64,000 nucleotides of DNA, from assembly GCA_041660005.1 (NCBI GenBank), contig JBAZXG010000006.1, positions 1,879-65,878 of the forward strand, given 5' to 3'. Made by a program: the position numbers and the translations under genes. This document shows positions 9,676 to 52,875 of this stretch, piece by piece (position 1 is the first letter of the stretch; each line of letters starts with the position of its first letter). The notes below the pieces were generated by a model that saw only the letters and a list, made by a program, of their open reading frames with translations, made no database searches and was not told where the DNA came from. The DNA is from Patescibacteria group bacterium. Its GTDB lineage: Bacteria; Patescibacteriota; Patescibacteriia; GWA2-46-9.

Positions 9676-10056
9676 CTATGCTGCTTTTGACTTTCTATAG
9701 GTGTCGAGATAGCGAATGAAACCACCGATTTCTTTTCCCAATTTTAGAAACATATCGTTTAAATCCTCGAACAAGTTAGTAGAAACATAACCAATATTAC
9801 GGGCTATATAAAGCTGATTTCTAACTTCACCCGTAGAACCTTTGGCGATCCGTAAATATCGAATTAACTCATTCGTACTGTTTTTCTCAAAACCCTCTAC
9901 TATGTTGGAGCTTATTGAAACTGTGGCTCTACGAATTTGATCTCGCAGTCCGAAATCTTTCGACCAACTCCCCCTTGATGTTATGTCGTATATCTTTGTA
10001 GTAACCTCAATAGCTGAAATCCAGACTGGTAATTCTTCAAAGCGGCTATATTTCAT
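9676..10056 (-). CDS. Four-helix-bundle protein (23S rRNA intervening-sequence-protein family, TIGR02436-like)
   Basis: 126 aa; VSISSNIVEGFEKNS...LRIAKGSTGEV motif typical of this family. Confidence 0.75.
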   Translation of the reverse strand: MKYSRFEELPVWISAIEVTTKIYDITSRGSWSKDFGLRDQIRRATVSISSNIVEGFEKNSTNELIRYLRIAKGSTGEVRNQLYIARNIGYVSTNLFEDLNDMFLKLGKEIGGFIRYLDTYRKSKAA

Positions 10057-15374: not shown

Positions 15375-17201
15375 TTGAGTACTAAACCTATGAAACAAAG
15401 GGAACCTTTTGATGGCCAAAACACTGAACCGGCGAACCCGGCTTCAGCAAGACGGCACATGGTTTTGCTAAATCAAATTCGTAACCTCTACCAATCTACC
15501 AAGAGCAAACTTCCCACAGTACGGCAACTGGCTCACTGTGGTCTCGTTTTCTCTAAACGAGAACGACAGCTTTTGGCAGGATGCTTTGCTATTATTACCG
15601 CTTCTCTCATTTGGCTCGGGGTTAACCAAGTCAGCGCTCACCTTGTAATAAATCCTGCGGTTGGCGGCGCTTACCAAGAAGCTATTGTCGGTCAACCAAG
15701 CTTTCTCAATCCCATCTTTGCCAACGCACGGGCCGTTGATGTTGATCTTACGCGACTCACCTTTTCCGGATTGATGCGCTACGATGTAAACCTCAAGCCA
15801 GTACCCGACCTCGCTGATTCAGTTACGGTGAGCGACGATGGCAAAACATACACGTTCACCCTTCACGACAACTTGCTTTGGCACGACAACGAAGCACTCA
15901 CCGTTGATGACGTCATCTTCACCTACGAAAGCTTAACTGATCCGGAACTTCGAAGCCCACTCAGCACCACCTTTCGCGGTGTAGTTGTAGAACGCGTAAA
16001 CGACAAAACAGTCCGATTCACTTTGAAAGAACCCTACGCTGACTTTTTAGATACTTTAACTGTCGGAATTATTCCGCAGCACATTTGGGGGAAGATCCCA
16101 GCAGCACAATGGCGACTCGCTGACTTTAATATCCGCCCTGTCGGCAGCGGTCCATGGCAATTCGCTAGTCTCAACCAAGACCGTGATGGTTTTATTAAAA
16201 GCTATACCATGACGCGCGCCGATAGTCGCCCTGTGGCCGGGTATCTTGACCGCCTCGTTTTTAAATTTTTCACCGACGAACCCAGCGCCATCAGCGCCTT
16301 ACGTAACCACAGCGTTGATGGATTCACCCTTCTTTCTTCTGACGGCTTTCGTGAGTTCGCCCGTCGAGATGGCGGCTTTACTCACTACGACCTCCATCTG
16401 CCAGCAGTAAGCGCTGTCTTCTTTAATCTCGGTCAATCAGGACCACTCGGCACTCTCGCTATTCGACAAGCACTTGATTTAGCAGTTGACCGACGCGCTC
16501 TCGTACTAGATACATTGCCCGGAGAAGCCGCTGTCAGCACCGGACCACTGCCAACAATTTCCTACGATGCTGAGACCAAAGAGAGTCCGCATTTTGATAA
16601 AGAGGGTGCAGAAAAATTACTGGACCAAGCTGGCTGGAAACTTGACGGCAATACCAGAAAAAATAAAAAAGGCGATGCACTAGAGATAACGCTCACTATT
16701 CTCGACCGGGATCCCGACCGAACCGCCGGCCAATTTATTCAGACTGCTTGGCAAGCAATCGGCGTTAACACAAAAATTGACCTCATCTCCCCCGCAACAC
16801 CCATGAACGTGCAGAGAACCGTTCTCCGACCGCGCGCTTATCAAGCACTACTCTACACCATTGTCTACGGGGCGCGACCTGATCCTTACCCGTTTTGGCA
16901 TTCATCGCAGCGTGTCGACCCAGGTCTTAACTTATCGCTTTTTAATGATAGCGATGCCGACAAAGCGATAGAAAAAATTCGTCGCTCTAACGACGAAGCA
17001 ATAAGAAACCAAGGATATGATGATCTACGTAAAGCCATCGGCAATGCAGTCCCTGCCGTCTTCCTGTATACGCCAACCAAGGAGTATATTATCAACGATG
17101 ACGTACGCGGTATAACGGTTAACGCTATTGCTAGCTTAGCTGACCGACTCAATAATCTTGACTCCTGGTACATTAAAACAACTCAGCATATCATTTGGTA
17201 A
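15375..17201 (+). CDS. ABC transporter substrate-binding protein, family 5 (oligopeptide/dipeptide OppA/DppA-like), N-terminal membrane anchor
   Basis: 608 aa; DDGKTYTFTLHDNLLWHDNEALTVDDVIFTYE is typical of the SBP_bac_5 fold. No cognate permease genes adjacent. Confidence 0.65.
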   Translation: MSTKPMKQREPFDGQNTEPANPASARRHMVLLNQIRNLYQSTKSKLPTVRQLAHCGLVFSKRERQLLAGCFAIITASLIWLGVNQVSAHLVINPAVGGAYQEAIVGQPSFLNPIFANARAVDVDLTRLTFSGLMRYDVNLKPVPDLADSVTVSDDGKTYTFTLHDNLLWHDNEALTVDDVIFTYESLTDPELRSPLSTTFRGVVVERVNDKTVRFTLKEPYADFLDTLTVGIIPQHIWGKIPAAQWRLADFNIRPVGSGPWQFASLNQDRDGFIKSYTMTRADSRPVAGYLDRLVFKFFTDEPSAISALRNHSVDGFTLLSSDGFREFARRDGGFTHYDLHLPAVSAVFFNLGQSGPLGTLAIRQALDLAVDRRALVLDTLPGEAAVSTGPLPTISYDAETKESPHFDKEGAEKLLDQAGWKLDGNTRKNKKGDALEITLTILDRDPDRTAGQFIQTAWQAIGVNTKIDLISPATPMNVQRTVLRPRAYQALLYTIVYGARPDPYPFWHSSQRVDPGLNLSLFNDSDADKAIEKIRRSNDEAIRNQGYDDLRKAIGNAVPAVFLYTPTKEYIINDDVRGITVNAIASLADRLNNLDSWYIKTTQHIIW

Positions 17202-17389: not shown

Positions 17390-17580
17390 AAAGGTTAAGG
17401 CAAACCTTCCGGTTTTCCTTAATATTCCTTTCTCTCAGCAGAGGACGTGAAGTAATCATTCCGTGCGCAAGCAGGCAAGCCCTACGGCCTGCGTACTCAT
17501 TCTTACTTCACTCGCGAAGAACAGTTCGAGACAACATCATGCCTGTCCGCCTTTGGCGGAGTTTTCTCGAATATCTATTC
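17390..17580 (+). repeat. Copy 1 of modular tRNA-flanking structured repeat family (modules A-D-C), starting 5 nt after tRNA-Leu(CAG)
   Basis: Shares long near-identical blocks with 23354-23690, 37380-37805 (reverse complement) and 52795-52875. One module is gtgaagtaatcattccgtgcgcaagcaggcaagccctacggcctgcgtactcattcttacttcac (nested hairpins); another is ttcgagacaacatcatgcctgtccgcctttggcggagttttctcgaa. Confidence 0.6.
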
Positions 17581-17684
17581 CCTTCCCATTAATTTTTCTT
17601 CGTAATTTATTCTTATTTATTTTATTTTTGGCTGCATCATCCCTGTGAGAACAGCGAGACGCATGCCACCACAACTACATACGT

Positions 17685-19511
17685 ATGACTGAACAGCATA
17701 AGTTCAAAAGCCGCCCACCTCGTGGGCAAGGCCGCCATCGTTACCATGGCGCAAAAACAGTGAGCGGTAACAAAGAGCACCACAAGGAAGAACAAAAAGA
17801 AGACAGCAACCGATTGAGCAAACCGGTCTTGACGAGCGCCACGCCAAAAGGAACCCTACGGGTAATTCCGATTGGTGGTCTCGAAGAAATTGGCCGCAAC
17901 TGCACCGTGTTTGAATATGGCGATGATATCATCGTTGTCGATATGGGCATTCAGTTCCCCGAAGAAGACATGCCGGGTATCGACTTTATTATTCCAAATT
18001 TAAGCTACCTCAAAGGCAAGGAGAAGCGTATTCGAGGTGTCTTTATCACGCACGGACACATGGATCACCTCGGGGCTATACCGTACCTCTTTCAACAAAT
18101 TGGTAATCCACCGGTCTACAGTGCACCACTGACGCTCGGCATCATCCAGCGACGCCAGGAAGAATTTCCGCGTGCACCAAAACTGCACCTGATAAAAATT
18201 GACTCAACGAAACGTGTACCAATAGGCAAGCACTTTGTCATTGAACCGTTCCACGTCAATCACAACATCACCGATTCATTCGGGCTCCTCATTCATACAC
18301 CCGTCGGCACGATTGCTCATACTGGTGACTTTAAGTTTGACTATACCCCGGTTGATGAAAAACCTGCTGAGATTGCACGACTGGCAGAAATTGGTAACAA
18401 AGGTGTTTTGGCGCTCATGGCTGACAGCACCAATGCTACCTCGCCGGGATACCAAATCTCTGAAAAAGACGTCGGGGAAAATCTTGAACAGCTTATTCGA
18501 AAAGCTGATGGACGCATCATTATTGGTGCATTTGCTTCCCTCTTAACACGTCACCAACAAATCATCGACATTGCCGAAAAAGTTGGACGAAAAGTACTTC
18601 TCCTCGGGCGTAGTATTCACAACTACGTTGAAATTGCTCAGCGTCTCAAATACTTTAAGGTACCCAAAGGCATTCTCATTGAAGACGCTGACTTCAATAA
18701 GCTGCCCGACAATAAGGTCCTAGTCATTTGCACGGGCGCCATGGGGCAAAAAAACTCTGCACTTATGCGCATCGCCAGTAACGAACACCGTCTCATTACC
18801 TTAAAAAAGGGCGATACCATTCTCTTTTCCTCCTCGGTTATTCCAGGTAACGAGCGTACCGTTGAACGCCTACAGGATTCGTTGGTGCGCAAAGGCGCTA
18901 ACGTCTATAACAACGCCATGATGGACATTCACTCCGGTGGTCACGCCAAGCAAGAGGATCTCAAACTGCTCCAGCGCCTCATTCGACCCAAATACTTCAT
19001 CCCGATTCACGGTAACCACTTCCGCCTAAAAATTCACGGCGAGCTGGCAACTGAAACGGGCGTTGAACAAAAAAATGTGTTCATTGCAGACAACGGGCAA
19101 GTGATTGAATTCACCAAAGCTGGCGGTCAACTTACGAAAAAACATGTCCCGGCGGATCACGTATTCGTCGACGGACTGGGAGTTGGCGACGTCTCAAATG
19201 TGGTTCTCCGAGAACGTCAGGCCATGGCTGAAGAGGGTATGTTTGTCATTATTACAACGATCGATAATAAGACCGGAAAACTGGTCGGCGAACCCGATAT
19301 TATTTCCCGAGGATTTATCTACATGAAAGAGAACCCTCGATTAATAGAAAAAGTACGCGACAAGGTTAAAAAAATTCTCGAGGACTCAAAAACCGACACG
19401 CCTGCCTTTGACGCTTACATCAAAGAAAAAATTCGCAACGAAGTTGGCCAACTCCTCTACGCGCATACGCGCCGACGACCAATGGTACTGCCAGTAGTAA
19501 ACGAAGTTTAG
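17685..19511 (+). CDS. rnj: Ribonuclease J (metallo-beta-lactamase/beta-CASP RNase)
   Basis: 608 aa; HGHMDHLGAIPYL motif, beta-CASP motifs, basic N-terminal extension. Confidence 0.9.
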   Translation: MTEQHKFKSRPPRGQGRHRYHGAKTVSGNKEHHKEEQKEDSNRLSKPVLTSATPKGTLRVIPIGGLEEIGRNCTVFEYGDDIIVVDMGIQFPEEDMPGIDFIIPNLSYLKGKEKRIRGVFITHGHMDHLGAIPYLFQQIGNPPVYSAPLTLGIIQRRQEEFPRAPKLHLIKIDSTKRVPIGKHFVIEPFHVNHNITDSFGLLIHTPVGTIAHTGDFKFDYTPVDEKPAEIARLAEIGNKGVLALMADSTNATSPGYQISEKDVGENLEQLIRKADGRIIIGAFASLLTRHQQIIDIAEKVGRKVLLLGRSIHNYVEIAQRLKYFKVPKGILIEDADFNKLPDNKVLVICTGAMGQKNSALMRIASNEHRLITLKKGDTILFSSSVIPGNERTVERLQDSLVRKGANVYNNAMMDIHSGGHAKQEDLKLLQRLIRPKYFIPIHGNHFRLKIHGELATETGVEQKNVFIADNGQVIEFTKAGGQLTKKHVPADHVFVDGLGVGDVSNVVLRERQAMAEEGMFVIITTIDNKTGKLVGEPDIISRGFIYMKENPRLIEKVRDKVKKILEDSKTDTPAFDAYIKEKIRNEVGQLLYAHTRRRPMVLPVVNEV

Positions 19512-19519
19512 CCCTGAAT

Positions 19520-19660
19520 TTTTCGACTTTCACCATTCGCTATTTGCGATTAGCTATTTGCTATTAGCCATTCGCGATTAGTTCCGACGATTAGTCGGAA
19601 CCCCGATTCAATAAATTTTTCTAATCTAGCGTCGGGGCTATTTGCCATTTGCTATCTGCT
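19520..19660. repeat. Degenerate tandem (C/T)ATT(T/C)GC(G/T)ATTAG heptamer/12-mer repeats plus hairpin ttccgacgattagtcggaa, in the convergent gap rnj / PBP gene
   Basis: cattcgctatttgcgattagctatttgctattagccattcgcgattag ... ctatttgccatttgctatctgc. The same TATTTGC/CATTTGC motif recurs inside the 16S expansion segment (~27355-27385). Confidence 0.4.
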
Positions 19661-20791
19661 ACTGGACGCGTAAGGTACAAGCGCTCCTTGCTTGACGCGA
19701 TAGAGTGCGAAGTTCGAAAGTATATCCCCGTTACCGTCGAAGGTGATCTGACCACTTGCACCTTTATAGCCAGAGACACTGCTTAGCCCATCACGAACAC
19801 AAGACCCTGAAACCGAGGTACAAGACCGTGCGATGCGTCCGACAATTTCCAGTGCATCAAAGGCCCGTGCCGCGTAAATATGCTCTGGCCGAACAGGTTC
19901 ATGGTAGGTCTTCAAATAAAGGTCCTTGAACCTGTCCACGCTTGCTGACCCTTCAAAAGGAGCACCTACAACCAACAAACCCTCAGCTGCCGTACCAGCA
20001 GCATCAAAAAAGCCCTGTGCACCAAGGAGGGCTGTTGAAGAGATGAACTGCATAGTCAATCCGAGCTCCCGAGCTTGTCGCAAAATGAGCGCCCCTTCAT
20101 TTGGATAACTCGCAAGATAAATCACCTGAGAATTTTTTTGTTTCAACTTTGTTAACTGCATCCGAAAATCCGTATCTCCAATGGTGAATAGCTCCCTGTC
20201 GTTAACAACACCACCTGCTTTTTCAAAAGCATCAGAAAGTGCTTGACTAACACCAACTCCATAATCGTTATTCACTGACAAAAGAGAAATATTTTTTTGA
20301 TTCAGTGTACTCAAAAGGGCATCCGCTACATAACTACCTTCAGCTGACGCTGACGGATAATTTCTAAATGTAAAGTCACTTAGCGTACTATAAAGCGGGG
20401 TTGCTGTTGCCACTCCCATCTGTACAACACGATCGTTATTTACAATCGGAGTAAGCGCCGTACCAACACCAGAACCCCAGGTAAAAACGAGTGGAAATGC
20501 ATACCGAGTTTTTAAACTATTGTATTCACTGATTGCCACCGTTGAATCGCCACCCTGACTATCGCCGTAAACAATGCGAACAGGGGGTCCAGACTGTGCG
20601 TTGAGATCATTTGCTGCAAGCTCTAACCCTCGACGTACCCACTCTCCTTGATCGGCACCGTTGCCTGATAAAGGAAGAATGGCAGCAAGTATAATTTCAG
20701 ACTTCGTTCGTGACCTATACCTTGTCACTACAAATACTGCACTACTCGCTAATAACAAAAGAACAACAAGCAGTAACAACCTCTTATTCAT
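19652..20791 (-). CDS. Periplasmic-binding-protein type 1 (LivJ/branched-chain amino acid-binding-like) lipo/anchored protein
   Basis: 379 aa, N-terminal hydrophobic anchor, ILPLSGNGADQGEWVRRGLELA is typical of the Peripla_BP_6 fold. Confidence 0.65.
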   Translation of the reverse strand: MNKRLLLLVVLLLLASSAVFVVTRYRSRTKSEIILAAILPLSGNGADQGEWVRRGLELAANDLNAQSGPPVRIVYGDSQGGDSTVAISEYNSLKTRYAFPLVFTWGSGVGTALTPIVNNDRVVQMGVATATPLYSTLSDFTFRNYPSASAEGSYVADALLSTLNQKNISLLSVNNDYGVGVSQALSDAFEKAGGVVNDRELFTIGDTDFRMQLTKLKQKNSQVIYLASYPNEGALILRQARELGLTMQFISSTALLGAQGFFDAAGTAAEGLLVVGAPFEGSASVDRFKDLYLKTYHEPVRPEHIYAARAFDALEIVGRIARSCTSVSGSCVRDGLSSVSGYKGASGQITFDGNGDILSNFALYRVKQGALVPYASSSR

Positions 20792-21575: not shown

Positions 21576-21682
21576 ACAGAGAGATTGATAACATTAAGTA
21601 TGATCAGTATATAGAGTTATCGGCCGCTTTGACAACGGCAGCATTCACCAATAGAATAACCGAACCCTGATTGATTGACGAA

Positions 21683-21710
21683 ATGCACACCTGATGCCGC
21701 GGTGGCGGAA
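21683..21710 (+). repeat. Partial 5' copy of tRNA-Leu(CAA) (first 15 nt of the tRNA plus 12 nt of its 5' flank) 51 nt upstream of the intact gene
   Basis: tgcacacctgatGCCGCGGTGGCGGAA vs tgtacacttgatGCCGCGGTGGCGGAA at 21735-21761. Confidence 0.5.
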
Positions 21711-21746
21711 AATAAAATACAAAAAAAGACGAAGTGTACACTTGAT

Positions 21747-21833
21747 GCCGCGGTGGCGGAACTGGTATACGCGCAGGACTCAAAATCCTGTGGGGGCAAC
21801 CTCGTGAGGGTTCGATTCCCTCCCGCGGCACCA
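21747..21833 (+). tRNA. tRNA-Leu (anticodon CAA), type II, CCA encoded
   Basis: Acceptor GCCGCGG/CCGCGGC, anticodon arm CAGGA-CTCAAAA-TCCTG, long variable arm, T-arm GAGGG-TTCGATT-CCCTC. Confidence 0.85.
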
Positions 21834-21878
21834 AGTGTACGTTTCATAAGAAATACGCGTCCCGGCACAAAGCCGGGA

Positions 21879-21921
21879 TGGGGGCAACCTCGTGAGGGTT
21901 CGATTCCCTCCCGCGGCACCA
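21879..21921 (+). repeat. Exact 43-nt direct repeat of the 3' end of tRNA-Leu(CAA) (variable-arm end + T-arm + acceptor + CCA), 45 nt downstream of the gene. att-site-like scar
   Basis: tgggggcaacctcgtgagggttcgattccctcccgcggcacca identical to 21791-21833. Intervening 45 nt contain hairpin cccggcacaaagccggg. AAGTGTAC direct repeats flank the tRNA (21732-21740, 21833-21840). Confidence 0.6.
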
Positions 21922-21922
21922 A

Positions 21923-21958
21923 AAAGTTCCTGACCCAAATTGGGTCAGGAACTTTTTT
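21923..21958 (+). terminator. Rho-independent terminator (perfect 12-bp stem GTTCCTGACCCA/TGGGTCAGGAAC + T6)
   Basis: aaaaGTTCCTGACCCAaatTGGGTCAGGAACtttttt; A-tract upstream means it may act bidirectionally. Confidence 0.7.
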
Positions 21959-22108
21959 ATGTATAGTCAGAGGGAATCGAACGGGCAAGACACTCAAAAT
22001 AAGTTTGGCGAAGTGACCTATGTTGAGCTTATTGAGTCAGTCGGGAAAAGCTTTGCCCTTCGACTCACTTCGTTCGCTCAGGACACTTCGACTCGAGAAG
22101 AGTCGAAG

Positions 22109-23351: not shown

Positions 23352-23353
23352 AG

Positions 23354-23690
23354 CCTTTCGAGACAACCACTTGGTTTTCTCGAATAACTCTTTCCTTCCA
23401 GAGAGGACGCAACTATTTTTCTCCGCTTCCACAACTAGCCAAGCAAGATTGTGGTTCTCGAAAAAAAGTTGCTCGAAGTTTGTTCTTTTGAGCCAACCTT
23501 CCGGCGACCAAGGGAGGTCCCTGTGGGATTTTCCTTAATATTCCTTTCCCTCAGCATGAGGTCGTTCAAAAATTATTTTGTGCGTCAGCGAACAAAGTTC
23601 TACGGCCGACGTACTCATAATTTTTTCACTCGCGAATGTTCCCTCTTTGCCGAGAAGTCGTTCTGTATCGCCCATGAAGTAGTTTGCCTT
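23354..23690 (+). repeat. Copy 2 of the modular tRNA-flanking repeat family (modules C'-B-A-E/D'), filling the whole tRNA-Phe / tRNA-Pro spacer
   Basis: Long identities to 37380-37805 (reverse complement), e.g. aaccttccggcgaccaagggaggtccctgtgggattttccttaatattcctttccctcagcatgaggtcgttcaaaaattatt. It ends with agtttgcctt, an inverted copy of the aaggcaaacct start motif, which is TIR-like. Confidence 0.6.
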
Positions 23691-23692
23691 AT

Positions 23693-25737: not shown

Positions 25738-25878
25738 TGATTCACAATTGCAAAGTGGTAAGAAATTCTCCGTGTCTATTTCGTATGTTTTGTGCCACCC
25801 CTTGCGGGGACTCCGATATATACCGGAGGTCGACTGGCTGTGTACCAACGTGAGATCGGTACACGTAAATCTCCTTAG

Positions 25879-27465
<1,587 letters not shown>

Positions 27466-27559
27466 TTAATCCTCTTTGCTCCGAAGAACAAAGAGGGGTG
27501 GTTGCGATATAGACACACCGTCTATACCAACAACCGAAAAGAAATTTAACGGAGGTTTC

Positions 27560-27592
27560 TTACCACTTTGCAATTGTTAATGTTCGAACTTC
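27560..27592 (-). promoter_or_regulatory. 16S leader half of the leader/trailer processing stem (pairs with 25750-25781 downstream of the 16S)
   Basis: The leader sequence caattgcaaagtggtaagaaacctccg is the near-exact reverse complement of the trailer cggagaatttcttaccactttgcaattg. This is the classic RNase III-type pre-16S stem. Confidence 0.6.
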
Positions 27593-34681: not shown

Positions 34682-37345
34682 TTAGGCCGTAGCGTAACGC
34701 GGTGATTCGGTCACCGACCAGGTTCTTGTAAAACGTTTAACAATTTCAATGGTTGTGATATCAAAAACCGCCACACCAACAATGAAGAGTAGATGACTTG
34801 GAACAAGCGGAACAGTGCCTAGTAAATAATTAAAGAACGGCATGTAGATTGTGGCCAGAGCAATGAGAAGACTTCCGGCGGTGGTGAACAACAAGAAGCG
34901 GTTTCCGTTAATACCCGTAACCCAAATAGGCCGATCCAACGAACGCAGTGAGAAAATGTAAAGCAACGGATTAATAGCGATAATAGCAAACATGATGGTT
35001 CGCGCGTACGGTATATCAACGCCAAGACGCTGTGCAAAGTATCCGAAACCAGCAAGGAGAAGCAGATCCCGAACGATAGCAGTACCAAATACGATAATCT
35101 GACCCTGTGCTGTTAAAATAGGCGCCGTTCTTCCGACGGGAGCACGCTGCATAACATTCGGCTCTCCTGGTTCAAAGGCAAGAGAAAAGGTTGGCAAACC
35201 GTCTTGAATCATATTTGCCCAAAGAATCATTACCGGTGTTAACGGCAACGGTAGACCAAGGAGCAAGGTTCCAAGAATTAAAATAAGCTCGGTAAACGAT
35301 GCGGAGAGTAAGAAGAGGGTCACCTTGCGTATATTGTCAAACGTAATCCGTCCCTCTTTTACCGCAGCAGTAATGGTGCTCAGTCCATTATTCAGCAAAA
35401 CCAGGTCGGCAGCTTCTTTGGTGGCGTCAGTAGCAGACACCGTTGCTACGCCGATATCAGCAGCTCGCAATGCCGGAGCGTCATTAATACCGTCACCCGT
35501 CATGGCCACTGATTCTCCATTAGCCATGAGCGCGCGTACGATGCGTAACTTATGCTCGGCAGTAACGCGGCAGTAGATAGCAACATCATGAACGACGCGA
35601 CGTAACTGCTCGTCTGATAATGTATCAAGAAAGGCACCAGTAACAACACTTTCTTCTGTTGTTGTGGAAAAACCAAGTTCCCGACCGATCGCCGTTGCGG
35701 TGAGCAGATGATCGCCAGTTATCATAAGAACGCGTATACCCGCTTTCCTGGTAACCGCCAAGGTTTCTTTTACATCAGAGCGGATTGGATCGCGTAATGC
35801 CACAATGCCGCGAAAATGCAGTTCAGAAACAAGCGCCCGCAATTTTGTAACATGGTTCACAGGTGTATTTCTTGGTAAGACTCTGTCAGCGATGCCAATA
35901 AGTCGATACCCCTCGGATGCCAGACGCTCCTGGAGAACGAGTAGATTCTTTCGGTCCTCCTCTTTCAATACAGCGGCGTTCCCGAGAAACTTTGAGGAAG
36001 TTAGCAACAACTCAGGAGCACCCGTAACTAGACAGTGCAGAGCGTCTGGTTTTTCTTTGTCGTTAACAAATGCGGCAATGTATTTGGTATGTGAGGTAAA
36101 TGGCAAAAAGGCAACCTCACTAAAGCGTACCCTGTTTTGCACTAAATCAGCGTTTTCTTTTAAAACAAACTCAAGCTTGGCTCGATCGGTGGCACCACCG
36201 CGAAAGACGAACGAGTCTCCATCTTTTTCGCTCACTGCTTCATTGGCAAGAGCCAAAGCAAGAAGAGCAGTCTCGTGGTCTCCTTCCAAAAAAGCTTGCT
36301 CAACCTTCATCACACCTTCGGTTAAAGTACCGGTTTTGTCGGCGCAAATAACGGTCGTCGACCCCAACGTCTCGGCGGCAATTGGTTGGCGAACAAGTCC
36401 TTTCTGCTTAAGGATCCGTGTTGTTGAAACAGCGAGTACCACAGAAAGTGCCGCCACTAAACCTTCAGGAATAGCTGCCACTGCCACCGCTACTGCAGTT
36501 TCAAATGAGGCAAAAAATCCTAACCCCCCAAAAGCACCGACAGAAATAATAATGATTCCAACCGCTACAACAGCGATACTGATACGATTGGCTAAATGCC
36601 GCAAACGAATTTGCAAAGGAGTGAGGTGGTTGTCAGCAAGGGCGGTCAACGTCGCAATTCGACCGAGCTCTGTATTGGCACCAGTTGCCACAACGACAAC
36701 CTGACCACTACCGCGTTCAACAACCGTACCCATCCACACCATATTCGATTGGTCGGCGAGCGGAGTTTTCTGGGAAACAGGATCAGTATTTTTTTTCACC
36801 AAGGTCGATTCCCCGGTCAAAATAGCCTCGTTTGTTTCAAGATCACGTGTTTGAATAATTCTGCTGTCAGCTGGTATCATCGCGCCGGCTTTAAGGTGCA
36901 CGAAGTCTCCGGGTACAAGATCTCTGGCGTCAATCTCGCGGAGCATACCCTCTCGCCACACCAAAGCAGAAACACGCACAATGCGACGTAAGGAAACTAA
37001 CGTTTTTTCTGAACGGTGCTCCTGGTAAAAACCAATAGCGGCATTCAAAACGACAACCATTAATATGACGGCGGTGTCCCCATATTCTTGCAGCCAAAAA
37101 GTCAGAGCGGCCGCAACTAACAAAATATAAATGAGCGGACTTACAAACTGATGCGCAAGCAAACGAAACCAACTAAACTTTTTTCCCACTGGCAGTTCGT
37201 TGGCTCCATAGAGTGACCGCCGATCGAGAACTTCATTGTTGGTTAATCCTGTTTCTTTGCTCGTGCGTAACGATGAGAGTACCTCGCTACCAGAAAGCGC
37301 ATGCCAGAAAATTGAACTGTTTAACTGCCCCGTGGTATTCGCCAT
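34682..37345 (-). CDS. Cation-transporting P-type ATPase (P2-type, Ca2+/Mg2+-transporting-like)
   Basis: 887 aa; TGES, ICADKTGTLT (phosphorylation site), MITGD, MTGDGINDAPAL, 10 TM. Confidence 0.9.
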   Translation of the reverse strand: MANTTGQLNSSIFWHALSGSEVLSSLRTSKETGLTNNEVLDRRSLYGANELPVGKKFSWFRLLAHQFVSPLIYILLVAAALTFWLQEYGDTAVILMVVVLNAAIGFYQEHRSEKTLVSLRRIVRVSALVWREGMLREIDARDLVPGDFVHLKAGAMIPADSRIIQTRDLETNEAILTGESTLVKKNTDPVSQKTPLADQSNMVWMGTVVERGSGQVVVVATGANTELGRIATLTALADNHLTPLQIRLRHLANRISIAVVAVGIIIISVGAFGGLGFFASFETAVAVAVAAIPEGLVAALSVVLAVSTTRILKQKGLVRQPIAAETLGSTTVICADKTGTLTEGVMKVEQAFLEGDHETALLALALANEAVSEKDGDSFVFRGGATDRAKLEFVLKENADLVQNRVRFSEVAFLPFTSHTKYIAAFVNDKEKPDALHCLVTGAPELLLTSSKFLGNAAVLKEEDRKNLLVLQERLASEGYRLIGIADRVLPRNTPVNHVTKLRALVSELHFRGIVALRDPIRSDVKETLAVTRKAGIRVLMITGDHLLTATAIGRELGFSTTTEESVVTGAFLDTLSDEQLRRVVHDVAIYCRVTAEHKLRIVRALMANGESVAMTGDGINDAPALRAADIGVATVSATDATKEAADLVLLNNGLSTITAAVKEGRITFDNIRKVTLFLLSASFTELILILGTLLLGLPLPLTPVMILWANMIQDGLPTFSLAFEPGEPNVMQRAPVGRTAPILTAQGQIIVFGTAIVRDLLLLAGFGYFAQRLGVDIPYARTIMFAIIAINPLLYIFSLRSLDRPIWVTGINGNRFLLFTTAGSLLIALATIYMPFFNYLLGTVPLVPSHLLFIVGVAVFDITTIEIVKRFTRTWSVTESPRYATA

Positions 37346-37379: not shown

Positions 37380-37805
37380 CGGCTGCTTGACGCACGGAAT
37401 AATTTTTGAACGACCTCATACTGAGGGAAACCTGCCCGACTGTGTCATTCAGGCGGGGGAACATTAAGGAAAATCCCACACCCTAAACAATCCGCCTGCG
37501 AGTGAAGTAATCATGAGCACGCAGGCCGTAGGGCTTGCCTGCTTGCGCGCGGAATAATTACTTCACGACCTCACGCAGAGGGAAAGAGTTATTCGAGAAA
37601 ACTCCGCCAAAGGCGGACAGGCATAATGTTGTCTCGAAAGAGCTATTACTGAGTGAGAACTTTTCGAGAACCACAATCTGTCTATGACAGTTGTGGAAGC
37701 GGAGAAAAGTTCGAACGTCCTCTGCTGAGGGAAAGGAACATTAAGGAAAATCCCACAGGGACTTCCGTTGGTCGCCGGAAGGTTTGCCTTAACTCTTGAA
37801 AGGAG
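37380..37805 (-). repeat. Copy 3 (longest, modules A-B-C-D-A'-E) of the tRNA-flanking repeat family, immediately 3' of tRNA-His on the minus strand
   Basis: The reverse complement matches copies 1 and 2 module by module (e.g. gtgaagtaattattccgcgcgcaagcaggcaagccctacggcctgcgtgctcatgattacttcac). It begins gttaaggcaaaccttccgg just 3' of the tRNA, as at tRNA-Leu(CAG). Confidence 0.6.
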
Positions 37806-37809
37806 CCAC

Positions 37810-37885
37810 TGGGGCGGCCAGAGGGAGTTGAACCCTCACCGAAAGGTCCACAACCTTTTGTGCTAACCGCTACACCATGGCCGCC
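37810..37885 (-). tRNA. tRNA-His (anticodon GTG) with encoded G-1 and CCA
   Basis: Reverse complement G-GCGGCCA-TG-GTGT-AGCGGTTA-GCAC-A-AAAGG-TTGTGGA-CCTTT-CGGT-GAGGG-TTCAACT-CCCTC-TGGCCGC-C-CCA. G-1:C73 is the hallmark of tRNA-His. Confidence 0.8.
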
Positions 37886-38545: not shown

Positions 38546-39526
38546 TTAATGTAGGGTCGTAATCGGTCGCGACTGAGTGATGTAAAACTTTTTCTTATAC
38601 AACGCCCATTCAATATCTTGTGGGTGTTTATAATGGCGTTCAATCAATACGCAAATTTTTGCGAGTTCTATAATTTGTTTACCTGTGAGCTTTTGCTTGC
38701 CACCAACCTTCGGACTTAACTTTTTTTCTATAGTACCTTTTTGCGCTCTAACAATCGCCATTCTTTGCTCAGATACATTAATGTCGAGAAGTGAATAATT
38801 TTTCTTCAAAATAACGTAGGTGTCAGGGGTGACCTGTCCAGAAACAATCGCTTCTCCTAACCCAAAGCCAGCTTCAATGACTATTTGATCTCGATCGTTC
38901 GTTACAGGATGAGTAGTGAAGGCAATGCCAGAAACTTCAGATTGCACCATTTGCTGCACCACAACAGCGACGGATACAGGCACACGATGCAGTTTTTTCT
39001 CAAAACGATAAAAGATCGCGCGTGGGGTGAATAACGACGACCAACATTTCATTACTGATTGAGTAAGATTTTTTTCAGATACGTTCAAGTATGTTTCTAA
39101 CTCACCTGCCCAGGAAGCAACTTTTGAGTCTTCGGCTGTGGCAGATGAACGCACTGCAACAAGAATTTTTTTGCCTTTGCTTAACTGTTTATACGCTGCC
39201 TTAACTTCTCTTTGCAAGTTTAATGGCATTTTCTCTCGGTGTATAATGTCACGAATTTTAACCGACGCCTTTTCGACCGAGTTAATATCTTTGGGCTTCA
39301 CACTGTGCAAAATGTTTTCGAGTTCAATATTAATGTCTGTTTCTGCCATAAACGCATCAAAAGCAGATGCTAGCACAACAAAACCAGGCGGCACGAATCC
39401 CTGGGCTTGCCCGCCGAATCCTTGGAGAAGGTGGGTCATTTCGCCCAAGGAAGCACCTTTGCCACCAGCGATTTTTACGTCACTATTAGTTATTTTTTCA
39501 AAAACTTTTGTGAACAATAAACTCAT
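38546..39526 (-). CDS. Stand-alone PEP synthase/pyruvate phosphate dikinase N-terminal ATP-grasp (PPDK_N) nucleotide-binding domain protein; last gene of the operon
   Basis: 326 aa; GGKGASLGEM, VPPGFVVLASAF, VAVRSSATAEDS..SWAGELETYLNV, QDIEWA..FYITQSRPIT. These are the canonical PPDK_N blocks, with no His or PEP-binding domains. Confidence 0.85.
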   Translation of the reverse strand: MSLLFTKVFEKITNSDVKIAGGKGASLGEMTHLLQGFGGQAQGFVPPGFVVLASAFDAFMAETDINIELENILHSVKPKDINSVEKASVKIRDIIHREKMPLNLQREVKAAYKQLSKGKKILVAVRSSATAEDSKVASWAGELETYLNVSEKNLTQSVMKCWSSLFTPRAIFYRFEKKLHRVPVSVAVVVQQMVQSEVSGIAFTTHPVTNDRDQIVIEAGFGLGEAIVSGQVTPDTYVILKKNYSLLDINVSEQRMAIVRAQKGTIEKKLSPKVGGKQKLTGKQIIELAKICVLIERHYKHPQDIEWALYKKKFYITQSRPITTLH

Positions 39527-41034
39527 ACTTTTTTTATTATACCTCTATTCGCATCAACCTCAATAATATCGCCCTCCTTAATTTGTTCTAAAACGCCCTG
39601 CGCACCAACAACCGCCGGTATTTTTAACTCCCGCGACACAATTGCCGCGTGCGAAGTAATACCTCCTTCTTCCGTCACAATACCACCAGCAATTTTCATA
39701 ACGGGTATATACTCTGGGCGAGTGTTTGGCGCAACAAGAATGTCGCCACGTTGGAACTTTTTAAAATCTTTTTGACTAAGCACAATCTTGGCAGTACCAA
39801 TAACTTTACCAGGATACGCCGTTCGACCAACTACGTTATCAGTAACAACCAAACTATTCATAAACTGTAATAACGCCTTTGCTTCCCGACCGCTGACAAA
39901 CTGAAGAGTTGTTTTTTTAGGAATAGCAACAAAAATCCCTCGCCTACGTGTTTGTAATATCTTACGATACTGTGATGTCGGCGAAAGTAATTTTTCCGCC
40001 TCCCAATACAAGGCGTACTCCGCTTCACGTAATGGCACACGACTTCTTCTAGTAAATTCTTGAAGGTACCGCTTCAGTAGTTCGTTCCCCATTTGGTTCA
40101 TAGCTTTTCGCTCATCCCGCCAGGTGGCAACAATACTGATCATGTTCGCTACCAACAAAACGGCATGCGGAATTTTCATGCGGCGAATAAATACTTTTTT
40201 CTTTAATAAGTCCCTCTTCAAAACAGCAGGCAATCGTAACTCATTATTTAATTTCTTAGGATTTTTTAGCAGTTCACGAATTGTATTTAAAAAATGACTT
40301 GATGTCAGGCGACGTACAAACGCATAATCACTGAGTGACCAAAAATATGTATCAGTGTGTGCTTTAATTTTCTGAACAAAAAATGGAAACCGCTTAGTAA
40401 TAACACCAATACTTGCACCTTTTTTAATCAAACCCTGAAGAGCAGGATTTCTTTCTGCAGCGGCGGCAAGGCGAGCAATATCTAGACGTTCAATTTGTGT
40501 TGGTAGCAAATAAGGACTCTGAACTAGTAGGTCAACTTCGGCTGAAGTTAGACGCACTCCTGCTTTATCGCACACGTTGTAAATAAGTGTCTCTCCGAAC
40601 ACATCAAAAGCATCATGAAACATTGATTCGCGCCAGAGAGAGTGATACTTTTCAATTTCAACATAGTAGCACTTCAAAAGTTCTGCATTACTTAATTGTT
40701 GTATGCCAGCCCACGGCAGTCCTTTAACGACCGAATCTTGAAACTGTTTATATGATTTACGCCATTTTTGGTAGCGACTCCACATATCACCGGGAATGTT
40801 TTGCTCACGATGTAAAAAATAGTTTGTAACTCGCTTCGCATCTTTCTTGGAAAAAAACAGGGTTGCATAATCGTTACTAAAGTAGGTTAAAAAACAAAGC
40901 TGCAAATCCACTGTTTTTTGATCTACGGTCATAGCGACACAGCTACTGTATGGTGGCGAAATATACAAAATTTTAACTGCGGCACCTTGACGGTACCATT
41001 TCAGTTTTGCCAGCTCTTTTTGGACAAATTTCAT
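39523..41034 (-). CDS. Paralog 6: divergent ~410 aa N-terminal domain + C-terminal PEP-utilizing-enzyme phosphohistidine (swivel) domain
   Basis: C-terminus RGDILVAPNTRPEYIPVMKIAGGIVTEEGGITSHAAIVSRELKIPAVVGA (TSHAAI catalytic His). ATGA overlap with the downstream ATP-grasp gene. Confidence 0.8.
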   Translation of the reverse strand: MKFVQKELAKLKWYRQGAAVKILYISPPYSSCVAMTVDQKTVDLQLCFLTYFSNDYATLFFSKKDAKRVTNYFLHREQNIPGDMWSRYQKWRKSYKQFQDSVVKGLPWAGIQQLSNAELLKCYYVEIEKYHSLWRESMFHDAFDVFGETLIYNVCDKAGVRLTSAEVDLLVQSPYLLPTQIERLDIARLAAAAERNPALQGLIKKGASIGVITKRFPFFVQKIKAHTDTYFWSLSDYAFVRRLTSSHFLNTIRELLKNPKKLNNELRLPAVLKRDLLKKKVFIRRMKIPHAVLLVANMISIVATWRDERKAMNQMGNELLKRYLQEFTRRSRVPLREAEYALYWEAEKLLSPTSQYRKILQTRRRGIFVAIPKKTTLQFVSGREAKALLQFMNSLVVTDNVVGRTAYPGKVIGTAKIVLSQKDFKKFQRGDILVAPNTRPEYIPVMKIAGGIVTEEGGITSHAAIVSRELKIPAVVGAQGVLEQIKEGDIIEVDANRGIIKKV

Positions 41035-42548
41035 AACTTTCTTACTAATCCTTGATCACTATCAATTTCGACAAAATCACCATTCTTTAATACTTTCGTG
41101 GCGACTTTGGTGCCAATTATACAAGGGATGTTCAGTTCACGGGCAATAATTGCTGCATGGCACGTTATACCACCTTCGTCGGTAATAATGGCCCTGGCTT
41201 GACGCACAAGCGGCATAAATTCCGGCCGCGTCATTGTTGTTACCAAAATTGAACCTTTTCTAAATTTCGATTTACTGACCTCAAGCACTACCTGAACACG
41301 ACCTTGAATTTTTTTTACTGGCGAAGCAACAACTTGCCCTTTAATTTCTTTTTTACTTGCTTGGTTAATAAAAATAACACTCCAAATTTTTTTTGCACTG
41401 CTACCTGTATAAATATGTTCATAATTTATACCATTTCGTTTTGTCTGAACGAAAGCTGAAAACTTGCGACGTAGAGCTAATTCGCGTTTATTTGGTATTT
41501 TACCGCCACGCAATAACTGATGACGTTCTTCAATACTCAAATATTTTATCTCCCAAATATTTAGCTTGCTCCGCCGTTCAAGTTCGTTAGCATAAACCTC
41601 AAAATACAGATTAGCAATTAGTGCCAAATGCTTCCTTTCGTCTATCCAACTCATCCAAAAAGACAGTAGTTTAAAGGCAGTTTTTAATTCGTAAGAAAGT
41701 CTAAATTGTTTACGTAAGCGGAACTGTGCTAATCTTAGTCTCTTTATTTTTGATAGTAAATTATACAACTCGACTTTTAACTTTTTTTGAGAGTTCTCTT
41801 CGCATTGTCGTCGTACCTCTTTATAAAGAATGCTAGGAATCAATAAATTGGATTTCTTATAGTTTGAATTAAGCCAGAAATATTTTTTTGATAACAGATT
41901 GACAGTTTTTTGAAGCGCTGTCGGACTTTTTGACAAAGAACTGAATCTACGAACTACGCCGTACCATCGAACGGCTACTTCTAGAACTTCACATTGATAC
42001 TCCTCAAGAAAACTTAACTTTAATGGTTGCGATAAAGTTGCCATGATATTTGTTACCTCCGCTGGTGTAAGCTGCGGTAGCTCCCGAGATAGTAACTTCG
42101 GTAATTCATACGTTGTAAAAACATCTGCCGATTCTAATACCCAAGTAATTCGCCAATGGTCAAGAACGAGCCGATTAAAACGGTCCATGGATTTGATTAC
42201 TTCCTGATCGCTCAACCCATTTCTTGATTTAATAAAAAAATCTCCCTCTCTATTAATACCACGCCTAACTTCCCGCCAGAGTTCATAATTCTTTCGCTGC
42301 AATGTTGAACCTCTTTGATACTTTTTCCAAAGATAATGCCAGATTGCCAATTTTTGATCCTCGGGTGTCTCTTCAAATACAAAATCCGATTTGAAAAATG
42401 CTACCATAAAGTTTGGCAACGTTGGATGCCAAAATTTTGACTGCTCAACAAAAGCACGAACCCAAATAGAAAACATGGGCACCGCTGGTGCCTCCTCCGA
42501 CCAGTAAGTATGTTTTTTTGTTTCTTTCAACGTTCTTTCTAAACTCAT
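41031..42548 (-). CDS. Paralog 5: N-terminal unknown domain + PEP-utilizing swivel domain
   Basis: C-terminus KGSILVTTMTRPEFMPLVRQARAIITDEGGITCHAAIIARELNIPCIIGT; ATGA overlap both sides. Confidence 0.8.
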   Translation of the reverse strand: MSLERTLKETKKHTYWSEEAPAVPMFSIWVRAFVEQSKFWHPTLPNFMVAFFKSDFVFEETPEDQKLAIWHYLWKKYQRGSTLQRKNYELWREVRRGINREGDFFIKSRNGLSDQEVIKSMDRFNRLVLDHWRITWVLESADVFTTYELPKLLSRELPQLTPAEVTNIMATLSQPLKLSFLEEYQCEVLEVAVRWYGVVRRFSSLSKSPTALQKTVNLLSKKYFWLNSNYKKSNLLIPSILYKEVRRQCEENSQKKLKVELYNLLSKIKRLRLAQFRLRKQFRLSYELKTAFKLLSFWMSWIDERKHLALIANLYFEVYANELERRSKLNIWEIKYLSIEERHQLLRGGKIPNKRELALRRKFSAFVQTKRNGINYEHIYTGSSAKKIWSVIFINQASKKEIKGQVVASPVKKIQGRVQVVLEVSKSKFRKGSILVTTMTRPEFMPLVRQARAIITDEGGITCHAAIIARELNIPCIIGTKVATKVLKNGDFVEIDSDQGLVRKL

Positions 42549-45465: not shown

Positions 45466-45468
45466 TAA

Positions 45469-46479: not shown

Positions 46480-46480
46480 A

Positions 46481-47074: not shown

Positions 47075-47086
47075 ACTGTTTAGGCT

Positions 47087-48583: not shown

Positions 48584-48601
48584 ATATTTCAGTTGAATTG
48601 A

Positions 48602-49171: not shown

Positions 49172-49174
49172 AAA

Positions 49175-49813: not shown

Positions 49814-49815
49814 AT

Positions 49816-52580: not shown

Positions 52581-52794
52581 CCTCCTCCCCTGAGGTCGCA
52601 AAGGGGGGAGGGTGCGCTTGTGCAAAACCGTGCATGTCGTGCCCTCCTCACCTCTCTTTTCTATACACCGGCGAGCTCGCACTCTCGCCTCTTCTCAAGG
52701 GGCAAGTAGTTCTCAAACACAAACGTCTCCTAAACAGGAAACGTATGCCGCGAGATAAATCTCTCTCCTCCTACTTGCCCCTTGAGAAGAAAAG

Positions 52795-52875
52795 CTTTAA
52801 AGGAAACCACACGGTTTCCTTTAATATTTCTTTCCCTCAGCATGAGGTCATTCAAAAATTATTCCGTGCGAGAAC
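52795..52875 (+). repeat. Copy 4 (fragment, modules A3'/E) of the tRNA-flanking repeat family, not next to a tRNA
   Basis: ggtttcctttaatatttctttccctcagcatgaggtcattcaaaaattattccgtgcg vs 23528-23590 and the reverse complement of 37386-37440. Confidence 0.55.

Follow-up and report, generated by a model that had tools for sequence, protein, structure and literature searches.

BOX repeats of pneumococcus (boxA-boxB-boxC) are modular, non-coding, folding intergenic repeats that vary in module number and have no known transposase of their own, and we know of no association of BOX with tRNA genes. In Escherichia coli, the 178-bp tyrT repeats with the rtT RNA (Rfam RF00391) lie in tandem downstream of a tRNA gene, are co-transcribed with it and are released in processing; rtT is one enterobacterial locus, and each unit carries a tRNA 3' fragment. 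The palindrome-associated elements derived from IS200/IS605 have hairpin ends and orientation-specific insertion, without terminal inverted repeats (TIRs) or target-site duplications (TSDs). Each repetitive extragenic palindrome (REP) unit measures 20-40 nt and is headed by GTAG/CGTC, and these palindromes have a link to REP-associated tyrosine transposases (RAYTs) (PMC3733652). In Methanopyrus kandleri, about half of the tRNA genes have the palindrome CGTTA(N)9TAACG ~10 bp downstream, and a role as a 3'-maturation signal has been suggested (PMC5217627). TIGR arrays, reported in bacteria belonging to the candidate phyla radiation (CPR), are long and regular, contain box C/D motifs and have as neighbour a gene for the Nop-domain protein Tas (PMC12045711). 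Here we analyzed a 64,000-nucleotide stretch of DNA, referred to as the window (contig JBAZXG010000006.1 of GenBank assembly GCA_041660005.1, positions 1,879 to 65,878), from an uncultured Patescibacteria (CPR) bacterium near Candidatus Uhrbacteria. The window contains a real repeat family, in which two alternating hairpin modules, T1 and T2, lie directly behind tRNA genes in one orientation. The family is previously undescribed and falls within the broad, well-populated class of bacterial structured intergenic repeats.

The earlier note on this DNA had reported four copies, and a repeat search together with blastn of the loci against the window recovered all of them: copy 1 at 17394-17590 (+), copy 2 at 23356-23637 (+), copy 3 at 37391-37793 (-) and copy 4 at 52796-52870 (+). 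The extents from blastn and the repeat search were slightly wider for some loci (23355-23637, 37383-37793 and 52795-52870). The four loci match one another over 40-105 nt at 77-96% identity, and neither search found a further site in the 64 kb. Copy 2 recurs with 100% identity in a second, independent assembly (L082), so the repeats are not an assembly artefact. The hairpin richness that had been described was borne out by folding z-scores of -5.0, -4.4 and -5.5 for copies 1, 2 and 3 against dinucleotide shuffles.

The gene content of the window includes six tRNA genes (identified by ARAGORN and Rfam) and an unlinked 16S rRNA gene. Copy 1 begins 4 nt beyond the end of tRNA-Leu(CAG) (17389), copy 2 begins 4 nt beyond the end of tRNA-Phe (23351) in the Phe-to-Pro spacer (23352-23692), and copy 3 begins 16 nt past the 3' end (37810) of the tRNA-His gene (37810-37884, minus strand), each co-oriented with its tRNA. 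The tight linkage to tRNA 3' ends holds for copies 1 to 3, although the measured distances are 4, 4 and 16 nt and not the 5-14 nt given before, while copy 4 is not beside a tRNA and follows a 101-nt hairpin. If four loci were placed at random, the probability that at least three would begin no more than 20 nt downstream of one of the six tRNAs and in its orientation is ~3e-9, or ~1e-6 when limited to intergenic DNA. Of seven loci compared, five have the start of T1 4-6 nt beyond the tRNA end; the distance is 16 nt at tRNA-His and 5 nt at the hairpin at 52690-52790, and T1 always has the orientation of the upstream RNA gene. The arrays occupy 130-460 nt with one to three T1-T2 units each, and the family follows at least five kinds of tRNA and one hairpin that is not a tRNA.

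Three stem-loop modules, A, C and D, had been proposed to occur in different orders. The blocks are indeed common to the copies and form extended stem-loops, but A and C represent a single module whose variants differ by compensatory changes in the stem, and the order is not arbitrary, as two module types strictly alternate. T1 comprises A, A-long, A', C and C', and T2 comprises D, D' and B, the last of which had not been named. The array of copy 1 reads A-D-C, that of copy 2 C'-B-A(long)-D', that of copy 3 A(long)-B-C-D-A'-D'(5' half), and that of copy 4 A-D'(5' half); the arrays of copies 3 and 4 stop at an identical internal point of D'. The modules are 54-78 nt long and start with GTTAAGG, TTTCGAG or GTGAAGT. 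T1 is built from a 12-bp hairpin with a variable apical insert, followed by a CU-rich linker, AAUAUUCCUUUCCCUC, which takes the form (A)AUAUUCCUUUCCCUC or AAUAACUCUUUCCCUC, and by a mini-hairpin, CCUC-NNNN-GAGG. The hairpin arms of A and C (TTAAGG.../...CCTTAA versus TTCGAGA.../...TCTCGAA) differ in a compensatory manner. The tip carries no insert in the short forms, a terminator-like CCGCC-TTT-GGCGG followed by GUUUUCU in C, and CCGGCGACCAACGGAAGUCCCUGUGGGA in A-long. T2 is a branched hairpin of ~26 bp (13 bp in the outer stem, 9 bp in the middle stem and 4 bp at the tip), with the invariant junctions AUUCCGUGCG, CUACGGCC and CGUACUCAU and the tail UCACUCGC.

The alignments of the two modules, examined for covariation as the earlier note had advised, showed that the structure is kept via compensatory changes. 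In six short T1 copies, 4 of the 12 pairs of the T1 hairpin (H1) have changed on both sides, and 93% of the cells are paired; the whole T1 structure scored 89.6% unslid, and the slid-partner control gave 36-62%. In five D and D' copies of T2, 7 of the 26 pairs have changed on both sides and 91.5% of the cells are paired, with 30-43% in the slid-partner control. A U-A to C-G switch separates the two D copies of the window, which are otherwise 92% identical, and a G-U pair is kept in every T2 copy. The stems thus vary in a compensatory manner while junctions and linkers are constant. Covariance models R1 (T1) and R2 (T2), built from these alignments, recovered all long and degenerate copies and had no other match in 218 kb of the clade. 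The scores were 37-95 bits for full modules and 19.9 bits for the degenerate C module of copy 1, and R1 and R2 had zero matches in 0.97 Mb of other genomes.

In our comparison, the behaviour of the family is closest to BOX and to REP with its bacterial interspersed mosaic elements (BIMEs), and its position is closest to the tyrT/rtT repeats and the M. kandleri palindrome. As in BIME/REP, for which termination and RNA-end protection have been proposed, the arrays would be transcribed, non-coding hairpin mosaics, and a mosaic of few module types in extragenic DNA is indeed present. The family is not REP itself, as its 54-78-nt modules lack the GTAG/CGTC head and are not 20-40-nt palindromes; it also differs in the strict T1-T2 alternation, the absence of any RAYT in view, the placement at tRNA 3' ends and the single orientation. 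BOX is likewise modular, non-coding and strongly folding with a variable internal module number, but its module set and order are different, a comparison made by description. Tandem units directly downstream of tRNA genes recall tyrT/rtT, but the units described here are dispersed behind at least five tRNAs, and the rtT Rfam model has no match. As here, many tRNAs of M. kandleri have a lineage-specific palindrome downstream at a short, fixed spacing, but the archaeal sequence is a single 19-nt palindrome, in contrast to two-module arrays of 130-460 nt with presence/absence variation. The absence of TIR and TSD, the hairpin ends and the one orientation are IS200/IS605-like, but neither a gene for TnpA or TnpB nor a tetranucleotide conserved as target was found here. 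TIGR arrays also consist of hairpin units with conserved and variable parts, whereas the arrays in question have no Tas neighbour, no box C/D motifs and no long regular array.

For comparison with relatives, syntenic loci of five related species were obtained from a metagenome scan and orthologous-gene look-ups. Loci L081 and L086 belong to the species of the 245,978-bp contig Ga0172380_10000052 (the Ga0172380 species), L095 and L098 to Ca. Uhrbacteria CG10_big_fil_rev_8_21_14_0_10_48_11 (CG10; assembly GCA_002793855.1), and L088, L094 and L099 to further species. The RNase J gene of the window (17685-19511) encodes a protein that is 100% identical to a protein of a metagenome-assembled genome labelled 'Patescibacteria group bacterium', and that shares 88-89% amino-acid identity with the CG10 protein and 74-76% with the Ga0172380 protein. 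At the four-fold degenerate sites of RNase J, the window is 28% identical to the Ga0172380 species and 36% to CG10, both values being saturated. The window species and the Ga0172380 species both come from adjacent samples of one metagenome series.

Blastn and scans of the relatives revealed further copies, again directly behind tRNA 3' ends. In the Ga0172380 species, one A-D' unit lies between tRNA-Arg(TCG) and tRNA-Lys (L081 7749-7876) and another in the Phe-to-Pro spacer (L086 14050-14176), both starting 4-6 nt past the tRNA. In CG10, the tRNA-His trailer contains diverged A-long pieces, with GACCGAAGGAAGTCCCTGTG twice and then an A'-like part, the tRNA-Leu(CAG) trailer contains a degenerate A piece, and the final ~20 nt of tRNA-Lys recur as a displaced copy that is followed, at 4 nt, by a clear T1-T2 unit (R1 73 bits, R2 33.6 bits). 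The Phe-to-Pro spacer is 341 nt long with two units in the window, 187 nt with one unit in the Ga0172380 species, and 43 nt with none in CG10. The Arg-to-Lys spacer is 183 nt with T1-T2 in the Ga0172380 species, 130 nt with a different hairpin family ('E', below) in CG10, and 27 nt with none in L099. Behind tRNA-Leu(CAG), the window has A-D-C and the Ga0172380 species, L088 and L094 have none, so that clear T1-T2 units at this site occur in the window species only. The presence and number of units thus vary among species at all three orthologous sites, an insertion polymorphism that favours gain and loss. Because further tRNA-linked copies exist and the structure is conserved by compensatory change, the arrays are not duplicated operon spacers without conserved structure, which the earlier note had named as the finding that would overturn its view.

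Both within and between the window species and the Ga0172380 species, A-D' units show 89.5-93% identity; for the other 53 nt of the Phe-to-Pro spacer, the two species share 68%. With synonymous sites saturated, an identity of ~90% suggests that the units are either under strong constraint or recently spread. A metagenome scan for the family returned two loci only, and the exact T1-core pattern had no match in 185,579 species genomes, a collection that does not hold the window species. Four viral-contig scans and blastn against phages and plasmids gave no match, and 80+ loci from more distant Patescibacteria and from Firmicutes were likewise without a match to the modules (blastn) or to R1 and R2. 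The family is restricted to a small group of related Uhrbacteria-like CPR bacteria and is absent from ~1 Mb of more distant genomes.

For each tRNA gene of the fetched loci, we also surveyed 90 nt of downstream sequence. A strong hairpin lies 0-18 nt downstream in ~19 of the 29 tabulated tRNA genes of the clade and close relatives. The hairpins in this slot are canonical terminators (a long perfect stem with a T-run), T1, or members of two other families, which we call 'E' and 'F'. A simple scan scored as terminator-like the T1 hairpin of copy 4, the hairpin at the tip of module C in each of its two copies, and the inner one of A-long. Promoter-like sites were found upstream of tRNA-His and of the tRNA-Arg of L081, and none inside the arrays; the arrays are likely co-transcribed with the tRNA, judging from the sequence.

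The 'E' family starts 0 nt after CCA and reads TTCTTCGC...GCGAAGAATGTCCT...GAAGGAC; in the window, it follows tRNA-Ile (22055-22108, minus strand). Its arms are TTCTTCGC.../...GCGAAGAA or CTTCGACTC/GAGTCGAAG, followed by (A)TGTCCT ... GAAGGAC. Further 'E' sites are L086 14898-14990, L098 11226-11320 and 16114-16250, and L083 ~9745-9830 and 15510-15600, and the family occurs behind tRNA-Ile in three species and behind tRNA-Arg in CG10. The 'F' family (ATAAYGTYRGTTAYGACTTTGTCRTAACC ... AGTAGTCCCGC-loop-GCGGGGCACCA) occurs behind tRNA-Leu(CAG) and tRNA-Leu(TAG) of CG10.

From these results, we tentatively favour the view that the family is a non-autonomous, BIME/BOX-like mosaic hairpin repeat in co-transcribed tRNA trailers that acts as RNA punctuation. 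The units would be transcribed together with the tRNA, and the modules would take the slot ~4 nt after CCA that other tRNA genes fill with a canonical terminator hairpin. As RNA, they may serve as a weak or conditional terminator, as an exonuclease block, or as double-stranded substrates that part the tRNA from what follows. As DNA, they would behave as a non-autonomous BIME/BOX-type mosaic repeat whose units duplicate in tandem and may be copied between tRNA 3' flanks, and this proposal would account for the differences in unit presence and number among orthologous spacers. Past gain and loss of units is seen at these spacers; the route of spread is one that we infer.

Several observations weigh against RNA punctuation. 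The short T1 hairpins of copy 1 and L081 are not terminator-like by the scan, and a real terminator in the Arg-to-Lys or Phe-to-Pro spacer would cut off the downstream tRNA. Since relatives have spacers of 27-43 nt, tRNA maturation does not require the modules. In six of seven arrays, folding of the antisense strand equals or exceeds that of the sense strand, so that this test did not separate the RNA from the DNA level and the hairpins could matter as DNA. The closer relative, CG10, has a more diverged unit (~72%) than the more distant Ga0172380 species (~90%), a pattern that rests on one clear CG10 unit and would fit horizontal spread at least as well as constraint, leaning towards spread. 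The three genomes were examined over only ~64 + 32 + 65 kb, and we infer both co-transcription and any role of the arrays as RNA.

A description of the copies as MITE-like (miniature inverted-repeat transposable elements) was not supported, as there are no TIRs, no visible target-site duplication and no transposase among the 41 open reading frames (ORFs) scanned in the window. The supposed TIR-like end of copy 2 is the 9-mer AAGGCAAAC, which is indeed present in inverted form at 23682-23690, but copy 2 contains no forward partner for it; its inverted copy lies within the partly conserved tRNA-Pro leader, and at least three such 9-mers were present in 9 of 100 shuffles of the window. An inverted-repeat search inside each array returned intra-module hairpin arms only and no terminal pair. 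No target-site duplication was found at the array borders by comparison with empty or shorter orthologous spacers, as in the junction CCA-AG/CC(array)...CACTCGC/GAATGTT versus CCA-AG-GAATGTT in CG10. No transposase, integrase, RAYT, Cas or Nop-domain protein was detected among the 41 window ORFs scanned, and no transposase or integrase in the fetched flanks of related loci. The left junctions (AAAG, AGCC, AGAC, AACC and GAGACC) have no conserved tetra- or pentanucleotide, and no TnpA was seen in these incomplete genomes. That the arrays are not CRISPR was upheld, with no regular direct-repeat array and no cas domains in the scanned ORFs.

Other known classes were examined in turn. An Rfam 15 scan of the window at gathering thresholds returned only the 16S rRNA and six tRNAs, and Rfam scans at E <=5 on the loci of copies 2, 3 and 4 gave chance-level matches only. 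There was no Rfam match to a ribozyme, riboswitch, T-box, HEARO or rtT, and neither ARAGORN nor Rfam found tRNA pseudogenes or tRNA-like elements in the arrays. Coding is rejected, as the only ORF, ATGAGGTCGTTC... of copy 2, lacks a start codon in L081 and has its frame shifted by a 1-nt indel in L086. A TIGR-Tas array is rejected for want of a regular array and of a Nop-domain ORF in the window. The arms misfit the RYYYAAC/GTTRRRY core sites of integron attC by inspection, and there is no IntI. For rRNA-operon antitermination, a single boxA-like string, TGTTCTTTTGAG (23481-23492), was found and is not recurrent. Anti-Shine-Dalgarno mimicry by the CU-rich linker was also rejected, as its likeness to the 16S 3' tail CACCUCCUUUCU is compositional only.

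Table 1. Modules of the four window arrays and the hairpin preceding copy 4
Feature	Position	Strand	Sequence and structure	Evidence
Copy 1 T1 (A, short)	17394..17447	+	12-bp hairpin TTAAGGCAAACC/GGTTTTCCTTAA; CU-rich linker TATTCCTTTCTCTC; mini-hairpin CTC-AGCA-GAG	R1 77.4 bits; fold
Copy 1 T2 (D)	17447..17519	+	Outer stem GTGAAGTAA/TTACTTCAC; inner GTGCGCA/TGCGTAC; tail CTCGCGAA	R2 89.3 bits; pair counts
Copy 1 T1 (C)	17525..17587	+	Stem TTCGAGACAAC/GTTTTCTCGAA; apical terminator-like hairpin TCCGCCTTTGGCGGA + GTTTTCT (17546-17560); without mini-hairpin	R1 19.9 bits
Copy 2 T1 (C', short)	23356..23409	+		R1 67.9 bits
Copy 2 T2 (B)	23409..23478	+	Outer stem GCAACTATTTTTC/GAAAAAAAGTTGC; inner CCACAA...TTGTGG	90-nt 74% match to copy 3 A-linker/B region; fold
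Copy 2 T1 (A-long)	23486..23563	+	Apical insertion CCGGCGACCAAGGGAGGTCCCTGTGGGA	R1 37.5 bits; 94% match to 37723-37787
Copy 2 T2 (D')	23564..23637	+		R2 95.3 bits; 89.5-91.2% identical to Ga0172380 species units
Copy 3 T1 (A-long)	37716..37793	-	Core GACCRAMGGAAGTCCCTGTGGGATTTTC kept in orthologous CG10 Uhrbacterium His trailer	R1 55.7 bits
Copy 3 T2 (B)	37649..37716	-	Outer stem GAACTTTTC/GAAAAGTTC	Inverted repeat; fold
Copy 3 T1 (C)	37566..37639	-	Terminator-like apical hairpin 37603-37617	R1 45.5 bits
Copy 3 T2 (D)	37494..37566	-	One compensatory U-A to C-G change versus copy 1 D (pair 18-51)	R2 92.1 bits
Copy 3 T1 (A')	37411..37481	-	Degenerate 5' arm; linker broken by 27-nt hairpin insertion	Repeat matches
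Copy 3 T2 5' half (D')	37391..37410	-	Ends ...TTCCGTGCG	95% match to 52831-52870
Copy 4 T1 (A)	52796..52849	+	Perfect 12-bp stem TTAAAGGAAACC/GGTTTCCTTTAA	R1 72.6 bits; bidirectional terminator-like hairpin score
Copy 4 T2 5' half (D')	52850..52870	+	Stops at same internal point as copy 3	Repeat matches
101-nt three-helix hairpin, candidate small RNA	52690..52790	+	In the place of a tRNA upstream of copy 4, 5 nt before it	

Downstream of the D' module of copy 2 are 55 nt of partly conserved tRNA-Pro leader (23638-23692), and copy 3 ends 45 nt before the start codon of a P-type ATPase gene (34682-37345, minus strand; Pfam). The 101-nt hairpin that precedes copy 4 has a 20-bp closing stem and two inner hairpins, and its CG10 ortholog is at L095 3685-3785 (-). 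The two are ~90% identical despite saturated synonymous sites, with five pairs changed on both sides, and in CG10 a terminator-like hairpin follows where the window has T1. Against Rfam, the plus strand returned nothing and the minus strand only sub-threshold, chance-level matches. The hairpin lies within a 1-kb hairpin-rich non-coding stretch (52340-53376) beside the ymdB and RNase Y genes and is a candidate for a new small RNA.

Some tRNA loci of the clade are rearranged. At the window tRNA-Leu(CAA) locus (21677-21958), the 5' leader and 5' end occur twice (21677-21710 and 21728-21761), and the 3' half is duplicated 8 nt past the gene (21841-21922), followed by a canonical terminator (21921-21958) and, at ~21962, by an inverted T-arm fragment, GGGAATCGAAC. 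These rearrangements look like footprints of integration or excision. At the same tRNA, L086 has a ~330-nt insert between repeats of CCA plus terminator. In CG10, a 4.5-kb island (L098 11431-16113) has tRNA-Lys(CTT) on one side and, on the other, two displaced copies of the final ~20 nt of this tRNA; it holds a bAvd-like ORF and a 131-aa reverse-transcriptase C-terminal fragment and is probably a decayed diversity-generating retroelement. An element of ~180 nt (GGGAATCGAAC...GCGAGCGCCGATGGATGCGAG...GGAATTCCC) lies ahead of the first tRNA fragment in the CG10 island and also at L086 13395-13585.

Against RNA punctuation stands first a possible, though somewhat unlikely, explanation in which the family is a transposable, non-autonomous DNA element without host function, moved in trans by a hairpin-recognising recombinase such as an IS200/IS605 TnpA, a RAYT-like single-strand transposase or an integrase, with the slot of the hairpin or terminator on the immediate 3' flank of tRNA genes as a safe haven for one-orientation insertion. 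The variation of unit presence and number at orthologous spacers would follow from such movement, and so would the ~90% identity between two species that have saturated synonymous sites and come from adjacent samples of one series, while the phylogenetically closer CG10 has more diverged units. The lack of TIR and TSD, the hairpins at the unit ends and the single orientation make up an IS200/IS605-type signature, the two strands fold equally well, and two arrays end at the identical internal point. The CG10 unit lies between direct repeats of the last ~20 nt of tRNA-Lys, and selfish elements occupy the same spacers, namely a GIY-YIG ORF in the Phe-to-Pro spacer of L094 and the retroelement remnant at the CG10 tRNA-Lys. 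However, neither a transposase nor an integrase was found in the window or beside the related loci, the stretch of 4-6 nt that separates CCA from T1 varies and shows no conserved target tetranucleotide, and the phage, plasmid and viral collections gave no match. The conserved single-stranded linkers and junctions, together with covarying helices, look like functional RNA, and since the adjacent non-repeat spacer is 68% conserved, vertical inheritance under constraint is plausible.

A further reading, which we regard as doubtful, has two forms. T1 and T2 would be a new CPR small-RNA class that hitch-hikes on tRNA genes, using their promoter and nucleases with the CCA+4 hairpin setting the 5' end, and whose sub-families (A/C, D/D'/B) are kept at ~90% identity across species by specific RNA or protein partners in trans; or, as a variant, they would be the first bacterial repeat that inserts with true specificity at the tRNA 3' end (or the terminator slot) without TIR or TSD.

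Rather unlikely, in our estimate, is that T1 and/or T2 are discrete stable small RNAs that use the tRNA promoter and processing nucleases and act in trans, for example by pairing of the CU-rich linker with purine-rich or Shine-Dalgarno-like sequences, or by binding of a protein at the junctions. Covarying helices with an invariant linker and invariant T2 junctions and tail are typical of functional RNAs, the sub-families, D' especially, are ~90% identical across species with saturated neutral sites, and the fixed 4-nt spacing would set a defined 5' end after cleavage of the tRNA 3' end. RNAs freed from tRNA transcripts have precedents: the rtT and 3'ETS-leuZ RNAs of E. coli are released in this way, and plant tRNA-snoRNA dicistrons are named in the reference list of the TIGR report (PMC12045711). 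Discrete small RNAs are difficult to reconcile with truncated units, variable unit numbers and orthologous sites of close relatives that have no units. No linked partner protein gene was found, the antisense strand folds equally well, and the likeness of the linker to CACCUCCUUUCU does not go beyond composition.

It is improbable that the arrays are scars, or arm regions, of integrative elements that target tRNA 3' ends, repeated through visits of related elements to several tRNAs. The duplicate of the tRNA-Leu(CAA) 3' half in the window, the repeated CCA and terminator in L086, and the two tRNA-Lys 3' fragments of CG10, one directly preceding a T1-T2 unit and with bAvd and a reverse-transcriptase fragment in the island between them, are what such visits may leave. 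However, none of the four window arrays is bracketed by tRNA 3'-end duplicates, as att scars would be (one CG10 unit is), no integrase was found, the same module lies behind five different tRNA species and one non-tRNA hairpin, and neither compensatory stem evolution nor strict T1/T2 alternation is expected of decay. Chance similarity or a diverged duplicated tRNA operon spacer, for which the common tRNA context alone speaks, is refuted by the unrelated flanking tRNAs and genes, by 77-96% identity over 40-105 nt, and by R1/R2 scores that reach 37-95 bits for full modules (19.9 for the degenerate C of copy 1) versus zero matches in the 0.97 Mb of controls.

Other features of the window and related loci are recorded here. 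The 16S rRNA gene (25879-27467, minus strand) is solitary, with no 23S, 5S or spacer tRNAs nearby, and is flanked by a 26-nt inverted repeat, 96% complementary (25740-25765 and 27556-27581), which is the usual processing stem. Heptad repeats (GCAAATN / CTATTTGC) occur in the window (19540-19670 and 27354-27386), in L081 (7890-7925) and in L095 (~3230); one run sits within the 16S rRNA gene, whose length exceeds that of the Rfam model by ~56 nt, and another is directly upstream of tRNA-Lys in two species. Window positions 38546-51348 (-) hold a run of at least nine co-oriented ORFs of low G+C (0.38-0.43), including at least four paralogous ORFs of ~500 aa with common conserved blocks, and NUDIX and HAD hydrolases between them. 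Two of these paralogues (39523-41034 and 49816-51348) have PEP-utilizer mobile domains, and a PPDK_N-domain ORF of the run is at 38546-39526; CG10 has fragments only of this cluster, plus an rve-type integrase ORF (L095 6895-7743). The GIY-YIG endonuclease ORF of L094 (14006-14269, 87 aa) lies within the Phe-to-Pro tRNA spacer of a more distant relative. CCA is not encoded in several tRNAs of the L088, L094 and L099 species, among them tRNA-Leu(CAG) (L088 and L094) and tRNA-Arg and tRNA-Lys (L099); other L094 tRNAs do encode CCA, as do the window-clade counterparts of the CCA-less tRNAs.

CPR genomes are ~1 Mb in size, with little room for junk. Despite its tiny genome, this clade devotes 130-460 nt after several of its tRNA genes to hairpin cassettes that are conserved and covary, and the linkage to the tRNA 3' end is unusually strict for a minimal genome. 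If the cassettes are RNA punctuation, they would show how tRNAs are separated from their neighbours in bacteria that have RNase J, RNase Y and RNase III, with no RNase E seen in the sequences examined. If they are mobile, they would represent an unusual targeting of bacterial tRNA 3' flanks without TIR or TSD, and may serve as a marker of DNA exchange between co-resident CPR species. Whichever reading holds, R1 and R2 provide a handle for scanning CPR genomes and metatranscriptomes.

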